64,000 nucleotides of DNA from Treponema sp. (GTDB taxonomy: Bacteria; Spirochaetota; Spirochaetia; Treponematales; Treponemataceae), in the NCBI GenBank assembly GCA_045616425.1, contig JAZLGS010000025.1, positions 6,712 to 70,711 on the forward strand, in the 5' to 3' direction. A program made the position numbers and the translations under genes. This document shows, piece by piece, positions 7,309-53,250 of the stretch (the stretch's first letter is position 1; each line of letters begins with the position of its first letter). The notes under the pieces were generated by a model. It was not told the DNA's origin. It saw only the letters and a list, made by a program, of their open reading frames with translations, and did not search any database.

Positions 7309-7339
7309 CTGCAGGACAAACATCCCCTATTTTGGTAAG

Positions 7340-7734
7340 GTCATATCCTTAAAAATTGCTGCTGAAAAAATCTGCATTACCGTGGAAAATGTGCCAGAAC
7401 CCTCCGGGGCAACAAGTCGCAATGTCGGCCTGCCGCCTTCGAAGCCCAGCTTCTCGGAGACTCGCTAAAATTGCTTTCGCAATTTTCCGGCTTTGCCGTC
7501 GCTCCCTTCCGCCTTCGAAGCCCAGCTTCTCGGAGACTCGCTAAAATCGCTTTCGCGATTTTCCGGCTTTGCCGTCGCTCCCTACATATTTTCCACCATC
7601 ATGCAGTTAATTTTGCCATCAATTCTATATAGCCTTATAAATTTTAGAAGTAAATTTACATAGCAGTACGGCAACAGTCCGACTTGTTGCATTGAAATTC
7701 CTCATTAATCAGCAACACCATAAACAGACATAGC
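7340..7734 (+). mobile_element. MITE-like element copy with an internal tandem hairpin module
   Basis: Collinear with the reverse complement of 52885-53116 (AATCTGCATTACCGTGGAAAATG.GCCAGAACCCTCCGG.GCAACAAGT; CATGCAGTTAATTTT; GACATAGC end). About 150 bp extra at 7433-7583. Left TIR is degenerate. Confidence 0.7.
7433..7583 (+). repeat. Tandem 2 x 76-bp structured hairpin module (family A)
   Basis: CCGCCTTCGAAGCCCAGCTTCTCGGAGACTCGCT-[stem-loop]-CCGGCTTTGCCGTCGCTCCCT twice, starting at 7433 and 7509. Confidence 0.9.
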
Positions 7735-7795
7735 GTTTTTGATAAAAGCGGTTCTTATTTATGAGTTAAAAAAAAGAAATCGAAGCTAGCAGCAT

Positions 7796-7846: not shown

Positions 7847-8173
7847 CTATTCAACTTCAGTTACAGACTGTATGATATTGAAAGCTTCCATGAATCCAGT
7901 GTCATTTACAGTTTTATGAGCTGATGGAGAAAGATTCATCAGGTACAGTTTCTTTCCGCAATCTAGCGCATCATTAAAAACAGCCATAATCATCCCCATT
8001 CCGGAAGAATCAATATCAATCACCTGGGAAAGGTCTAAAACCACATTTGTTTCCTGAATGCTGGCAAAAAGCTTTACCTGCAGTTCCGAAATAGTATACG
8101 AGTTACAATCCCCGAAAAGTTCATACAGAATATAGTTTGAACCATGTTTTTCAGTTACACGTAATTGTTCCAT
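7847..8173 (-). CDS. STAS-domain anti-sigma factor antagonist
   Basis: VVLDLSQVIDIDSSGMG phosphorylatable-Ser motif, 108 aa. Confidence 0.92.
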   Translation of the reverse strand: MEQLRVTEKHGSNYILYELFGDCNSYTISELQVKLFASIQETNVVLDLSQVIDIDSSGMGMIMAVFNDALDCGKKLYLMNLSPSAHKTVNDTGFMEAFNIIQSVTEVE

Positions 8174-13224: not shown

Positions 13225-13310
13225 AATTCCAGAACCTTATATTCATAAATGAAGTTACCCCGGTGAAATTTCCGGGGTAGTTCTTCAAGTACATTAAGAA
13301 ACATTACCAA

Positions 13311-13398
13311 GGACATCTCTAAAAAAACTTTTTAAAGATGCCTGCTGCTTTCATCCTTAAAATTATAAGGACTAAACACAGCATTTTCAAAGTTACCT
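13311..13398. repeat. Intergenic repeat family B
   Basis: GGACATCTCTAAAAA...AAAGATGCC...TTCATCCTTAAAATTATAAGG...GCATTTTCAAAGTTACCT; aligns with 17971, 31507 and 44282. Confidence 0.75.
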
Positions 13399-17970: not shown

Positions 17971-18086
17971 GTCATCTCTGAAAATACCATTCCGAAATGA
18001 CCGCGGTTTTCATCCTTGAAACTACAAGGCCAAAAACACCGCATTTTCAAAGTTGCCTCTAAAAACCGCAGTTTCCAGAGGGTTTC
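17971..18086. repeat. Intergenic repeat family B (full-length, about 115 bp)
   Basis: Collinear with 44282-44397 and 13311-13398. Confidence 0.75.
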
Positions 18087-21279: not shown

Positions 21280-21307
21280 AAAACAGGATAATATTTAATA
21301 TTATTTG

Positions 21308-21365
21308 GCTATGTCCGTAAAAAGTGTTGCTAAAACATCCGCACTTTACTAAAAAAGAGGGTCCC
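21308..21365 (+). mobile_element. Isolated MITE left-end fragment
   Basis: GCTATGTCCGTAAAAAGTGTTG, identical to one TIR end of 52885-53116; continues like the 30694 copy. Confidence 0.65.
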
Positions 21366-21486
21366 TCTTTTTTTTATAATATGTCAGTTTAATCCAGCAT
21401 TAATTTTGTTCAATCTTTATTCATAATGACGGTGTTGATTCAATTTATATGCATTCTGCATCGCCTGAATGTCGGTTTTAAAGTCT

Positions 21487-21532
21487 TGTCATCCCGGATT
21501 TTCCCCGTCATCCCGGACTGGATCCGGGATCT
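21487..21532. repeat. GTCA-type REP palindrome (one partial and one full copy)
   Basis: TGTCATCCCGGA then CGTCATCCCGGACTGGATCCGGGATCT (ATCCCGGA/TCCGGGAT stem). Confidence 0.75.
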
Positions 21533-21601
21533 ATAAACAGATGCTGAAAAAGGCTAAGAAGAATTAATGGCAAAATTAATCGCATGGTGGTGGAAACTAC
21601 G

Positions 21602-21675
21602 TAGGGAGCGACGGCAAAGCCGGAAAATTGCGGAAGCAATTTTAGCGAGTCTCCGAGAAGCTGGGCTTCGAAGGC
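21602..21675 (-). repeat. Single family-A hairpin module joined to MITE internal sequence
   Basis: The reverse complement differs from unit 1 at 7433 only in the loop (TTCC vs TTTC) and is followed by the same CCAC...CATGC..TTAATTTTGCCAT junction sequence. Confidence 0.9.
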
Positions 21676-21737
21676 GCATAGAACAAAGAGGGAACCTGCA
21701 GGAATTATTTTTACAGGTATCCCCTTTTTTACCTTCC

Positions 21738-30605: not shown

Positions 30606-30693
30606 AGACACAAGGGCATCTCAAAAAACATTTTTCCAGATGCCCCGTTTTAAGTGACCTGAGCCTGCAGGCCCTGAAAACACATCACACAAG

Positions 30694-30745
30694 GCAATAT
30701 CCGTAAAAAGTGTTGCTGAAAATCTGCATTTTACTAAGAAAAAAG
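30694..30745 (+). mobile_element. MITE left-end fragment
   Basis: GCAATATCCGTAAAAAGTGTTGCTGAAAATCTGCATT matches the TIR and left end of the 52885-53116 family. Confidence 0.6.
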
Positions 30746-30833
30746 CGGGTCCCAGCGACGGAAAGAAGATCAGGTTCCTGTACTGGAAAACAGGAACCAT
30801 GTATCCCCAATGGTTCCCCCTTAGGCAACTACA

Positions 30834-30987
30834 CCTTCGAAGCACAGCTTCTCGGAGACTCGCTCAAAACTCACCTCGTGAGTTTTGCCGGCGTTGCCGT
30901 CGCTCCTGGGGCCTTCGAAGCACAGCTTCTCGGAGACTCGCTCAAAACTCACCTCGTGAGTTTTGCCGGCGTTGCCGTCGCTCCCTA
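30834..30987 (+). repeat. Tandem 2 x 78-bp family-A module, variant stem
   Basis: CCTTCGAAGCACAGCTTCTCGGAGACTCGCT-CAAAACTCAC CTC GTGAGTTTTG-CCGGCGTTGCCGTCGCTCC twice, starting at 30834 and 30912. Confidence 0.9.
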
Positions 30988-31050
30988 TCTGCGCCAACTC
31001 CTGGAAGCTTTTTTCATGCCCGGCGCCTGATTAATCCAGGCCTGGAGGAT

Positions 31051-31458: not shown

Positions 31459-31506
31459 TGTCACTCCTCCTGCGTCTTCATAAATGTCCATTTGTGCATC
31501 ATATAA

Positions 31507-31588
31507 GGACATCTCTAAAAAATACTTTTTCGAGATGCCTGCGAGTTTTTCAAAGTTACCTCAGAAAATTGCAATTTTCAAAGGTTCC
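31507..31588. repeat. Intergenic repeat family B (internally deleted copy)
   Basis: GGACATCTCTAAAAAA...GAGATGCC then TTTTCAAAGTTACCTC...AAAGGTTCC. Confidence 0.7.
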
Positions 31589-33819: not shown

Positions 33820-34031
33820 AATCAGACTCCTTTTTTATATGATACTTACCGAAATACTAATTCCGGAAAGTTTTATCCATTATTTCATTTTCACAAAAAA
33901 CATTCAATATATTTGAAGATTTTTGAAGTACAGCTTTTATTTCCACAGTAAACCTTTTACTTGGAAAACAGGCATTTAAGGACATAATGAAAATTGCAAT
34001 TTTCAGCAGTTCCCATTAATATAATGGAATC

Positions 34032-35838: not shown

Positions 35839-35911
35839 CGGTCCCTACGGGAGTCGAACCCGTCTTTAGAGATTGAGAATCTCTCGTCCTAAACCGATAG
35901 ACGAAGGGACC
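35839..35911 (-). tRNA. tRNA-Glu(CTC)
   Basis: Acceptor stem GGTCCCT/AGGGACC, anticodon arm AGAGA-TTCTCAA-TCTCT, T-loop GGTTCGACTC; no encoded CCA. Confidence 0.95.
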
Positions 35912-35951
35912 AGAAAAAACAAAAGCTGACCAATCAGTCAGCTTTCTTTAT

Positions 35952-36022
35952 TTCCCCAAGGAGGATTCGAACCCCCACAATCAGAACCAGAATCTGAGGT
36001 GCTACCATTACACAATCGGGGA
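35952..36022 (-). tRNA. tRNA-Gln(CTG)
   Basis: Acceptor stem TCCCCGA/TTGGGGA, anticodon arm TCAGA-TTCTGGT-TCTGA, GGTTCGAATCC. Confidence 0.95.
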
Positions 36023-44281: not shown

Positions 44282-44397
44282 GGCATCTCTAAAAAATAAA
44301 TTTCCGAGAAACTTTAGAGTTTTTCACCCTGAGATTGCAAGGTTCAAAAACTGCACTTCAAAAGTTACTTCTGTAAATTGCAATTTACAGAGTTTTC
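44282..44397. repeat. Intergenic repeat family B (full-length)
   Basis: Collinear with 17971-18086. Confidence 0.75.
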
Positions 44398-44412
44398 TTT
44401 ATTTTCTTTAGG

Positions 44413-49705: not shown

Positions 49706-51550
49706 ATGAAGGTTGAAGAAATCAAGAATGCCAAAATCAAGGCATGGATTGAAGAATGTGTAAAAATGTGTGAACCAGATGCAGTTGTAGTTTGTGATGG
49801 TTCTACAGCTGAGTATGACCGCTTGATGCAGAAATGTGTTGATGCAGGTCTTGCTACTCCGCTTGCAAAGAAAGAAAATTCTTTCTTGTTCCGTTCACTC
49901 CCAAGCGACGTTGCCCGTGTTGAAGGACGTACATTCATTTCTTCAGTAAAAGAAGAAGATGCCGGTCCTACAAACCACTGGATCGATCCAAAAGAACTCA
50001 AGGCTACAATGACAGGTCTTTACACAGGTTGTATGCACGGACGTACAATGTACGTAATTCCATTCTGCATGGGTCCACTTGGTTCACCAATCGCAAAATA
50101 CGGTGTTGAACTTACAGACTCTGAATACGTTGTATTGAACATGGACATCATGACACGTGCAGGCGAAAAAGTATGGCAGTATCTTGATGACGGATTCGTT
50201 CCATGTCTCCACTCAGTTGGAAAACCACTCAACAACGGCGAAAAAGACAACGGTGTATGGCCTTGCGCAGATGTTGAAAACAAATACATTTCCCACTTCC
50301 CAGAAGAAAGGCTCATCTGGTCTTACGGTTCTGGATACGGTGGAAACGCACTCCTCGGAAAGAAGTGTTTCGCACTCCGCATTGCTACAGTAATTGCACG
50401 CGAAGAAGGCTGGCTTGCTGAACACATGCTCATCCTCAAGCTCACAAACCCACAGGGCGAAGTTAAGTACGTAACTGGTGCATTCCCGTCAGCATGTGGA
50501 AAGACAAACCTTGCAATGCTCATTCCTACAATCCCAGGATGGAAGGTTGAAACAGTCGGTGATGATATCGCATGGATGAAGTACGGAAAGGACGGCCGCC
50601 TCTATGCCATCAATCCGGAAGCAGGATTCTTTGGTGTTGCACCAGGAACATCTGCTGAATCTAACAAGAACGCACTTATCTCTGCAGAAAAGAACACAAT
50701 CTATACAAACTGTGCACTTACAGAAGACGGCGACGTATGGTGGGAAGGTATCGGATACCCTGCAACAGGCAAGCTTGTTGACTGGAAAGGCAACACACGT
50801 GACGCACTTCCAAAGGACAAGGCTCCTAAGGGAGAAGAAATGGCACATCCAAATGCACGCTTTACAGCACCTGCAGGACAGTGTCCATGTATCGCATCTG
50901 ACTGGGAATCTCCAGAAGGTGTACCAATCTCTGCAATCCTCTTCGGTGGACGCCGCCCATCTACAGTACCTCTCGTACATCAGGCACGTTCATGGAACCA
51001 CGGTGTATTCCTCGGTTCTATCGTAGGATCAGAAATCACAGCAGCTTCTACAATCAATGCAGCAGAAGTTGGTAAGATCCGCCGCGACCCATTCGCAATC
51101 CTCCCATTCTGTGGATACAACATGGGTGACTACTTCAAGCACTGGATTGACGTTGGTAACGCGGCACAGGACAAGGACAAGCTTCCTAAGATCTTCTACG
51201 TTAACTGGTTCCGCAAGGACGAAAACAACGCTGACCTTCCGGGCGGATTCATGTGGCCAGGATACGGTGACAACTCACGCGTTCTCGCATGGATTTTCGA
51301 CCGCTGTAACGGTGTTGACAACTGTGTTGACACTCCACTTGGATTCATGCCAAAAGAAGGCGCACTCAATACTGAAGGACTGGCAGATTGCTACAAGAAG
51401 ACTCTCCCAGAAATCCTCAAGGTTGATGTTGAAGGATGGAAGAAGGAAGTTAAGGACATCCGTGAAAACCACTATCCAAAGTTCGGTGCTCACCTTCCAA
51501 AGGAACTTACAGAAACTCTCGACGATCTGGAAGCACGCCTTTCAAAATAG
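49706..51550 (+). CDS. pckG: Phosphoenolpyruvate carboxykinase (GTP)
   Basis: [39 protein letters not shown]. Confidence 0.98.
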
Positions 51551-51560
51551 GTTTTCAAAT

Positions 51561-51841
51561 CCGACAAAATGGCTGTGCCACTTTGCGGTTTAAAACCATT
51601 CCATATGGTGACTTGTGCACCATAAAATAGTTTCGAAGCGACGGTTTCCGCGCTTCAAACCATTGGGTCTGCCGGCTTTTTGCCGGTGGGCCTTTTTTTT
51701 CCGACATAATGTGCTGTGCCACTTTGTCGGCTTAAAACCATTTCATATGGTGACTTGCGCACCATAAACTGGTTTCGAAGTGACGGTTTCCGCGCTTAAA
51801 ACCATTGGGCCTGCCGGCTTTTTGCCGGTGGGCCTTTTTTT
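51561..51841 (+). repeat. Tandem 2 x about 140-bp multi-hairpin unit ending in a terminator
   Basis: Units start at 51561 and 51701, roughly 90% identical by eye; each ends GG(T/C)CTGCCGGC-TTTTT-GCCGGTGGGCC-T7+. Confidence 0.9.
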
Positions 51842-51860
51842 CCAGAAAAATTCCTTCAGG

Positions 51861-52764: not shown

Positions 52765-52884
52765 AACAAATCCTTCTATTGATTAATATAATCTGCAAAA
52801 ATGCCTTTAATTGAATAATATCAAAGTTTTCAAAGTCCCACAATCGGAATTTTACACCATCACGGCAGACATGTATTTTTTTTT

Positions 52885-53116
52885 GCTATGTCCGGCGATA
52901 GTATTGCTGGATAATGAAGAATCTCGAAGTATCGATGCAGTGGTAAGAAACTACACTCGATGCTGATAAAGACTATGTAGAGTTAATGGTAAAATTAACT
53001 GCATGGTAGTAGAAAATACGACAGATTCCGACATTGCAACTTGTTGCACCGGAGGGTTCTGGCGCATTTTCCACGGTAATGCAGATTTTTTTAACAACAC
53101 TTTTTACGGACATAGC
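52885..53116. mobile_element. Intact 232-bp MITE-like element
   Basis: Perfect 10-bp TIR GCTATGTCCG/CGGACATAGC; T9 on both flanks (52876-52884 and 53117-53125), consistent with a target-site duplication; related copies at 7340, 21308 and 30694. Confidence 0.8.
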
Positions 53117-53250
53117 TTTTTTTTTGCTTCCGCACTACCAAAAAAAGGATTTATCCCCCATAATGGAAAAGCATATGCCTGCCTCTGAAAACATAGTTCC
53201 AGAGGTTTCCGGTATATTCTGCGCTGCTAACTTATTTACAGGAGGAACAG

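Follow-up and report, generated by a model that had tools for sequence, protein, structure and literature searches.

What is the short hairpin sequence that recurs at separated sites along a Treponema contig, and by what route did it come to be dispersed? The question is raised by a 64,000-nt stretch of Treponema sp. DNA, henceforth referred to as the window (C25:6712-70711 of a 2.95-Mb, 91-contig draft genome with 41.3% G+C and 94% completeness), in which an initial annotation had described five copies of a hairpin-forming repeat at three loci. The repeat, here called the module, is a discrete three-hairpin unit of 76-80 nt in this genome. It occurs here as the internal cargo, in zero to four or more tandem copies, of a family of MITEs (miniature inverted-repeat transposable elements). 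Considered jointly, the results make it probable that the module is a REP/BOX-like cassette that predates its present carrier and that is transported in this genome by MITEs derived from the IS1595 family.

All five annotated copies were confirmed in place. Two type-A copies on the plus strand (7433..7508 and 7509..7585) stand in tandem with a period of 76 nt; the central stem is AAAATTGC/GCAATTTT in the first and AAAATCGC/GCGATTTT in the second, which scores 82.8 bits with a covariance model of the module. The lone type-A copy on the minus strand (21601..21677, 81.6 bits) carries the loop TTCC, and a right-hand MITE piece, CCATGCGATTAATTTTGCCATTAATTC (21550-21600), adjoins its 3' side. Two type-B copies on the plus strand (30831..30908 and 30909..30988, period 78 nt, 88 bits) share the central stem CAAAACTCAC/GTGAGTTTTG. 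The stem variants thus agree with those first described, including the change confined to the TTCC loop, as do the two small flanking hairpins that vary only in their loops. The 17-nt core of the module, CTTCTCGGAGACTCGCT, is found five times in the window compared to 0.05 expected occurrences, and none of 100 shuffles reached five.

The description of a five-copy family did not hold at the scale of the genome. Counting core matches with at most three mismatches, 222 were found (about 220 modules in total), and a strict anchor pattern recovered 175 full modules in 119 arrays. These full modules comprise 115 of type A (stem AAAATYGC/GCRATTTT, period 76 nt), 55 of type B (stem as in the window, period 79-80 nt) and five short forms devoid of the central hairpin. 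The arrays are direct head-to-tail tandems, of which 80 are single, 27 double, seven triple and five quadruple, and mixed arrays of both types occur. Neighbouring modules within an array differ at 3.15 positions compared to 5.13 between arrays (70 nt compared, p 2e-9), which indicates local tandem duplication or conversion. Only nine of the 119 arrays lie inside long open reading frames (ORFs), and a protein-coding repeat was ruled out since the 76-nt period is not a multiple of three. The repeat system lies within 250 nt of 44 of 182 contig ends (24%), whereas the share for random windows is 3.4%. It is thus among the main reasons why the assembly breaks, and the arrays may in reality be longer than counted. 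A scan of 185,579 species genomes with the 17-nt core was uninformative, returning mostly single chance matches, the sole relevant one being in a Treponema metagenome-assembled genome (L013).

Nor is the module a free-standing repeat in the window; its copies sit inside larger elements bounded by terminal inverted repeats. The initial annotation missed that an IS1595-type MITE with 8-bp target-site duplications (TSDs) contains these copies as its internal tandem units. The two tandem type-A modules lie within a complete 397-bp MITE on the plus strand (7339..7735; left end GGTCATATCCTTAAAAATTGCTGCTG, right end ...CAGCAACACCATAAACAGACATAGCG) with the same architecture as elements across the genome. 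A complete, module-less MITE of 234 bp on the minus strand (52884..53117; C25:59595-59828) is flanked on both sides by TTTTTTTT, an 8/8 TSD, and has 9 nt (AATCTGTCG) where the 7339..7735 locus has 2 x 76 nt. Positions 7343-7428 and 7587-7636 recur there in inverted orientation at 53028-53113 and 52969-53018 with only those 9 nt between them, demonstrating that the module sits in a larger element that also exists without it. The type-B pair belongs to a truncated MITE on the plus strand (30693..30988), consisting of the left terminus GGCAATATCCGTAAAAAGTGTTGCTG, internal pieces and the two modules, with no right terminus. The lone module belongs to a compound, decayed element present as fragments (21307-~21740), the far end of which is a perfect terminus, GGCTATGTCCGTAAAAAGTGTTGC, with the first internal piece (21307..21370, plus strand). 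Copies of a 25-nt palindromic unit (GTCATCCCGGA...; GTCATCCCGGACTGGATCCGGGATC) at 21480-21545 also adjoin this module.

Across the genome, a limited number of recurrent pieces frames the arrays, and the outermost of these pieces are terminal inverted repeats of ~25 nt with the same sequence as that perfect terminus, reading GGCTATGTCCGTAAAAAGTGTTGCT... on the left and ...AGCAACACTATAGCCGGACATAGCC on the right. Termini were counted 174 times at three mismatches or fewer, while a reversed-pattern control gave none, and the MITE copies number ~90. Complete elements are 143-414 bp long with mosaic interiors, no ORF, and zero, one, two or more modules, the same termini enclosing from zero to four. 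Among 79 adjacent terminus pairs, perfect 8/8 duplications of the flanking sequence were present in 16 and 7/8 duplications in eight more, compared to 0.46 and 0.88, respectively, with shuffled partners, and the signal was lost at register shifts of 1-3 or 8 nt. The duplicated targets are AT-rich (for example TTAAAGAA, TATATTTT, AAAGTATT and AATATTTA). The flanking repeats are therefore TSDs, and the MITEs were inserted by transposition. Recognisable termini adjoin 79 of 96 internal arrays on at least one side and 35 on both.

A parent for the carrier was found in a relative. The MITE terminus (three mismatches or fewer) is present in 14 of 121 congeneric species, six of which carry it 6-26 times in addition to the 174 occurrences here. 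In one relative (G055, locus L056 on contig C45) a 342-aa ORF (344-1372) begins 43 nt past a perfect 24-nt terminus, and an inverted terminus lies 1.8 kb downstream (2067-2090). The ORF matches the IS1595 family transposase model NF033547 with 200 bits (cut-off 75) and PF12762 with 50 bits (cut-off 27), together with an IS1/IS1595 N-terminal zinc-binding domain. Members of the IS1595 family generate 8-bp TSDs and possess an N-terminal zinc finger (PMC8101967), and the member ISEc69 duplicates an 8-bp AT-rich target (PMC7835479). The MITEs share their termini with the relative's element, have 8-bp AT-rich TSDs, and are small, non-coding, multicopy and intergenic. These data demonstrate that they derive from an IS1595-family insertion sequence, a carrier that explains the dispersal of the module in this genome. 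The 1.8-kb element of the relative also carries a 125-aa passenger ORF (L056 1590-1967) and is adjoined by a gene (L056 2085-3407) for a 440-aa protein of repeated ~50-aa zinc-ribbon-like units (...KVIISCPKHGEFLMSP..GCPKCG...).

The module has a far broader distribution than this carrier. With a covariance model built from 14 diverse copies, 190 of 338 congeneric species tested positive, as did three of 98 genera of the order, all of one family; 13 candidates were scored per genome, so copy counts saturate. These results show the module to be confined to a single Treponema family lineage. Genomes of one sister genus each contain 12-15 divergent copies, some of them tandem; here H1, the first of the three hairpins, has given way to unrelated hairpins, and the remaining 3' two-thirds is kept. 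By BLAST, modules of ~80% identity were present in 11 of 24 congeners, these congeners being without IS1595 termini. In view of a module present in 190 of 338 species and IS1595 termini in only 14 of 121 congeners, the module appears to be both older and wider than its carrier. In other species it is mostly single and stands in at least two other recurrent frames. The first is a ~200-nt GC-rich element, GGGCGTTCCC...GCCAC..[module]GTGGC..., and the second is built from a 25-nt palindromic unit, GTCATCCYGAAC-TTGT-TTCRGGATC, with the module in its loop; this unit, identical to the one at 21480-21545 of the window, is widespread in the genus. At the one orthologous site of this kind that was found, the sequence is uninterrupted in one species (G005) while another (G138) has ~110 extra bases, AAAATCCTGAAC-[module]-GTTTCAGGATCCAC, so that a module-bearing block was gained or lost as a unit in a frame other than IS1595.

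Conservation of the module resides in its structure. The unit, 76-86 nt long when copies overall are counted, consists of a variable H1, the almost invariant linker GAGACTCGCT, a second hairpin (H2), a third hairpin (H3) whose sequence is free, and the almost invariant linker CGCTCCCTA. H2 combines a near-invariant base of A4-5/T4-5 (84-88 of 90 copies) with a free upper stem. Among 48 distinct sequences from about 45 species, standard pairs occupied 99.4% of cells compared to 92.2% after column shuffling (n=500), and changes on both sides were observed in 12 of 24 pairs compared to 4.6 expected; no shuffle reached either value. Compensatory cells numbered 64 compared to 9.2 in shuffles, and sliding the 3' partners by 1-3 columns reduced pairing to 33-56%. 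After addition of 40 more divergent copies, all 67 distinct sequences folded as H1-H2-H3. A second test on 90 distinct copies compared the Watson-Crick share of each pair to shuffling and gave 94-98% versus 73-80% for H1 pairs 2-4, 93-97% versus 39-46% for H2 pairs 6-8, and 85-95% versus 47-57% for H3 pairs 3-5, the H3 stems being as diverse as CCGGC/GCCGT, GCCCTGC/GCAGGGC, GCCCC/GGGGC, TCGCC/GGCGA and GCCAC/GTGGC.

Covariation in all three helices establishes that the hairpins are really selected, and the initial proposal of selection for pairing was borne out by the multi-species alignment it had called for. The convincing covariation comes from other species and not from this genome alone, where compensatory change amounts essentially to two subfamilies (T:A 72, C:G 29, T:G 11, C:A 3). 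Compared to shuffled sequences, canonical copies folded markedly more stably (z scores of -3.2 and -3.9), which a type-A copy of this genome did not (-1.2). Five short copies in this genome lack H2, a copy in another species (G197, L132) lacks H3, and in a third (G085, L130, C1:173144-173631) an extra hairpin is nested in the H3 loop with a tandem period of 93 nt. The three hairpins thus behave as separable sub-modules.

Which molecule folds is indicated by the kind of pairs that are kept. A functional RNA made from one strand normally tolerates G:U far better than A:C. Across species, G:U was as rare as A:C (9 and 16, respectively, in ~1600 cells). Since A:C on one strand is G:U on the other, there is no preferred strand, and the pairs are maintained as strictly Watson-Crick. 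Orientation gave a similar picture, with 24 sense and 23 antisense arrays in co-directional gene contexts of this genome. Convergent gaps, which make up 15% of gaps in number and 19% in length, hold as many as 27 of 85 arrays, and divergent gaps are depleted (11 of 85); this is the usual footprint of tolerated insertions. Taken together, these results favour hairpins that form on either strand, whether in single-stranded DNA (ssDNA), in extruded DNA or in transcripts running both ways, over a dedicated non-coding RNA (ncRNA) from one strand.

The account that we consider probable joins these lines of evidence. Dispersal in this genome proceeded by DDE-type transposition of the carrier together with local tandem amplification. 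An IS1595 transposase supplied in trans, now absent from the assembly, would have moved the MITEs by cut-and-paste into AT-rich DNA between genes; the internal arrays may have grown and shrunk as 76-nt units slipped in replication or recombined unequally, and recombination via shared modules may have given the mosaic variants. Stems kept paired by Watson-Crick, strand-symmetric covariation point to selection on the hairpins regardless of strand, which would act on whichever strand is read, as extruded or single-stranded DNA or as transcripts of either orientation. The invariant linkers are probably read sequence-specifically by some factor. On this account the module would behave as a REP/BOX-like hairpin cassette, selfish or domesticated, and not as a one-strand RNA gene.

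Several observations weigh against this account. No transposase lies between MITE termini in this assembly, where only ordinary genes stand between separate MITEs, and the transposase of the relative found no match by tblastn (E<=1e-3) in the assembly, 94% complete. Current mobility here is accordingly unproven; the copies are either orphaned, or the parent was lost or collapsed in an assembly with 24% of its contig ends on the repeat. Seventeen of the 96 internal arrays have no recognisable terminus. Module-less MITEs could stem from deletion between 6-nt CTNNCG linkers and need not be the ancestral form. Co-directional contexts in other species show a 17:5 antisense bias, in a small sample with several orthologous loci, and G:T-type wobbles exceed C:A-type in this genome (22 compared to 4), which hints at a favoured strand among copies that are not independent, being array neighbours and members of subfamilies. 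Finally, invariant linkers and an architecture kept across more than 190 species exceed the needs of a passive passenger and point to function or recognition.

The most concrete such function, which we regard as a tentative possibility, is that of a portable bidirectional terminator, insulator or 3'-end stabiliser that stops or stabilises transcripts from either side. It is compatible with carriage in MITEs, would let the cassette be tolerated or be of use in intergenic positions, and would provide the function that is still missing. The near-palindromic H2, with its A-tract, GC-rich stem and T-tract, reads alike on both strands and would explain the strand-symmetric covariation, and pairing restricted to Watson-Crick is as expected if both transcripts must fold. 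The near-constant A/T base of H2 below a free upper stem, the excess of arrays in convergent 3'-3' gaps, the better folding of canonical copies than of shuffles, and the many loci with copies 5-80 nt past stop codons all fit this function. However, a consensus terminator scan made no call at H2 here or in canonical copies, as the T-run is only 4-5 nt long and is paired with the A-run. In this genome the type-A stem contains no more than 2-3 G:C pairs, the adjacent gene (7847-8173) comes with a separate terminator-like hairpin of its own, and divergent and convergent contexts are equal in other species (6 and 6). A terminator would also leave H1, H3 and the invariant linkers unexplained.

A role as the folded-strand recognition substrate of an undescribed Treponema mobilisation or processing system is unlikely. 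The enzyme of such a system would not be Y1/RAYT, TnpB or IS110; the linkers GAGACUCGCU and CGCUCCCUA would serve for docking, on a required scaffold formed by the three hairpins with their free covariation. If true, this proposal would explain both the entry of the module into different frames, such as the loop of the 25-nt palindrome and the interior of the IS1595 MITE, and its conservation in more than 190 species. No cognate enzyme for the module itself was identified in the Y1, TnpB, IS110 and linked-ORF comparisons, and none is present in the window, as first reported. ORF clustering at 40 loci yielded no recurrent protein gene within 1.2 kb, the only "families" being read-throughs of the repeat.

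The initial annotation had offered two interpretations, a structured ncRNA domain and a substrate of a REP/HUH transposase, neither of which was supported, while its failure to recognise a named family agrees with the lack of an Rfam match. The ncRNA reading, in which the module is a domain of an RNA transcribed from one strand, such as a small RNA, a cis-regulator or a ribozyme-like three-way junction, appears very improbable. It draws on the strong covariation of three helices with invariant junction sequences, on the excess of G:T-type wobbles in this genome, and on a possible closing helix, GGA[GACUC]GC/GCUCC. The latter shows a few coupled changes across species, and in this genome its proposed pairs are mostly hit by single changes (A:C 10, G:T 6, A:T 2). 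Against a one-strand RNA stand the equal rarity of G:U and A:C across species, the absence of orientation bias in this genome, and the occurrence of tandem arrays of up to four inside transposed elements with TSDs. Variants devoid of H2 or H3 also persist, and H1 is swapped wholesale in the sister genus. Rfam 15 was searched with the window at the gathering threshold, which returned only tRNAs, and permissively to E<=10 with the form found in this genome and the canonical form, which returned only chance-level matches (E>=1.2). The tRNA matches are two adjacent genes on the minus strand (35839-36022; RF00005, 56.8 and 54.8 bits).

A REP/BIME-like element moved by a RAYT or another HUH (Y1) transposase acting on folded ssDNA is scarcely credible. 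The module is hairpin-based, intergenic, highly repeated and mosaic; by direct reading, TAGGGAGCG precedes H3 on the reverse strand and superficially resembles the GTAG-plus-hairpin of REP; and copies are found ~600 nt or less from each of three Y1 fragments in this genome. Membership was nevertheless rejected on co-occurrence. Among the 338 species, 58 have both module and Y1 match (PF01797), 132 the module only, 56 Y1 only and 92 neither, so that 132 of 190 module-bearing genomes are without Y1 and the odds ratio is 0.72 (p 0.17; Y1 in 114 species). Of 40 genomes with high copy number, 22 have no Y1 match, among them G137 and G138, both 99% complete. The arrays are direct tandems and not inverted doublets, the reverse strand has NTAGGGAGCG with a variable base before TAGGGAG, and, as noted above, no protein gene is recurrently linked to the module. 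The three PF01797 matches in this genome are remnants of IS200-type TnpA (one cut by a contig end, two with stops) and are not framed by the module.

These remnants (C71:2-229, C43:33792-33953 and C67:1289-1393) each lie near a MITE copy, an arrangement that suggests nesting of mobile elements in shared permissive gaps or, alternatively, targeting of these repeats by IS200. PF01797 proteins of the genus form two classes, one of ~153 aa and IS200-type (E about 1e-40) and one of ~250 aa (E about 1e-15) and possibly RAYT-like. Counted by hand, the latter occurs in 17 module-positive and 14 module-negative genomes and does not track the module. The remaining candidates were also rejected: TnpB/omega-RNA, with only sub-threshold TnpB-type matches in 10 high-copy genomes; IS110/bridge-RNA, with IS110 transposases in five of those 10; an IS200/IS605-derived PATE, given no Y1 association and three variable bases 5' of CCTTCG, where a conserved target tetranucleotide would be expected; and integron attC, since on direct reading the module ends (CCTTCG... 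and ...CCCTA) lack RYYYAAC/GTTRRRY cores and no cassettes lie between copies.

No description of this element was found in the literature, and it is an undescribed repeat of a familiar bacterial kind, not a new RNA gene. Its architecture is closest to pneumococcal BOX, while its spread in this genome is that of an IS1595-derived MITE. BOX elements of Streptococcus pneumoniae have the intergenic arrangement boxA-boxB(n)-boxC, with inversely complementary termini and a tandem, hairpin-forming internal module with a 45-nt unit. The likeness to these small, dispersed, non-coding elements, in which terminal modules enclose zero to several tandem internal modules, is one of architecture only, with no apparent sequence relationship. 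Unlike BOX, the module here forms three hairpins in a unit of 76-80 nt, the termini match an identifiable autonomous insertion sequence and are flanked by 8-bp TSDs, and the module is also present outside this frame, in more than 190 species.

As in other IS1595 MITEs, the termini are identical to those around a transposase gene (here that of the relative), the TSDs are AT-rich and 8 bp long, and the 143-414 bp elements contain no ORF. Unlike such MITEs, the autonomous partner is absent from this assembly, and unlike a simple deletion derivative of an insertion sequence, the interior is a patchwork of unrelated hairpin segments, the tandem module among them. REP, BIME and REPIN elements of Enterobacteria and Pseudomonas are likewise abundant extragenic hairpin repeats in mosaics with linkers, conserved lineage-wide and enriched at gene 3' ends. 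They differ in their Y1/RAYT association, in a single 20-40-nt imperfect palindrome compared to three hairpins in ~80 nt, in inverted doublets compared to direct arrays, and in that dispersal in this genome is explained by a DDE-type carrier. Correia/NEMIS elements of Neisseria and ERIC/IRU elements of Enterobacteria are also intergenic, bounded by terminal inverted repeats, flanked by TSDs and co-transcribed with neighbouring genes, and longer forms of ERIC have extra internal segments. The present MITEs resemble them in the first three features and are probably co-transcribed as well. They differ from them in host lineage, in the termini and in the length of the TSD (8 bp here), and neither group has a separately conserved, tandemly amplified internal module common to other frames.

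Two further repeats were observed in the window. A second, unrelated family of dispersed intergenic repeats (13309-13398, 18034-18083, 31505-31588, 33989-34013 and 44284-44400) includes GAAAATTGCAATTTTC, which is palindromic, as well as the pieces AAGGACATCTCTAAAAAA and AAACACNGCATTTTCAAAGTTACCT, and could be a shared operator or promoter region. At 51586-51846, between genes ending at 51550 and 51922, there is a pair of 119-nt direct repeats that share 92% identity and are separated by 142 nt.

The system is a clean case of hitch-hiking, in which one conserved hairpin cassette travels in several mobile frames that are unrelated to each other; one of these, a DDE-type MITE, has a nameable parent insertion sequence. 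It also demonstrates that strong covariation alone is no proof of an RNA gene, and that the symmetry of G:U versus A:C pairs and statistics on orientation relative to genes offer an inexpensive means of discrimination. About one in four contig breaks in this assembly is attributable to the repeat system, which also yields spurious ORFs (e.g. ...GDSLKMLH...) and hairpins that resemble RNA genes. Where it is recognised, false ncRNA and gene calls are avoided in hundreds of Treponema genomes from gut and rumen.

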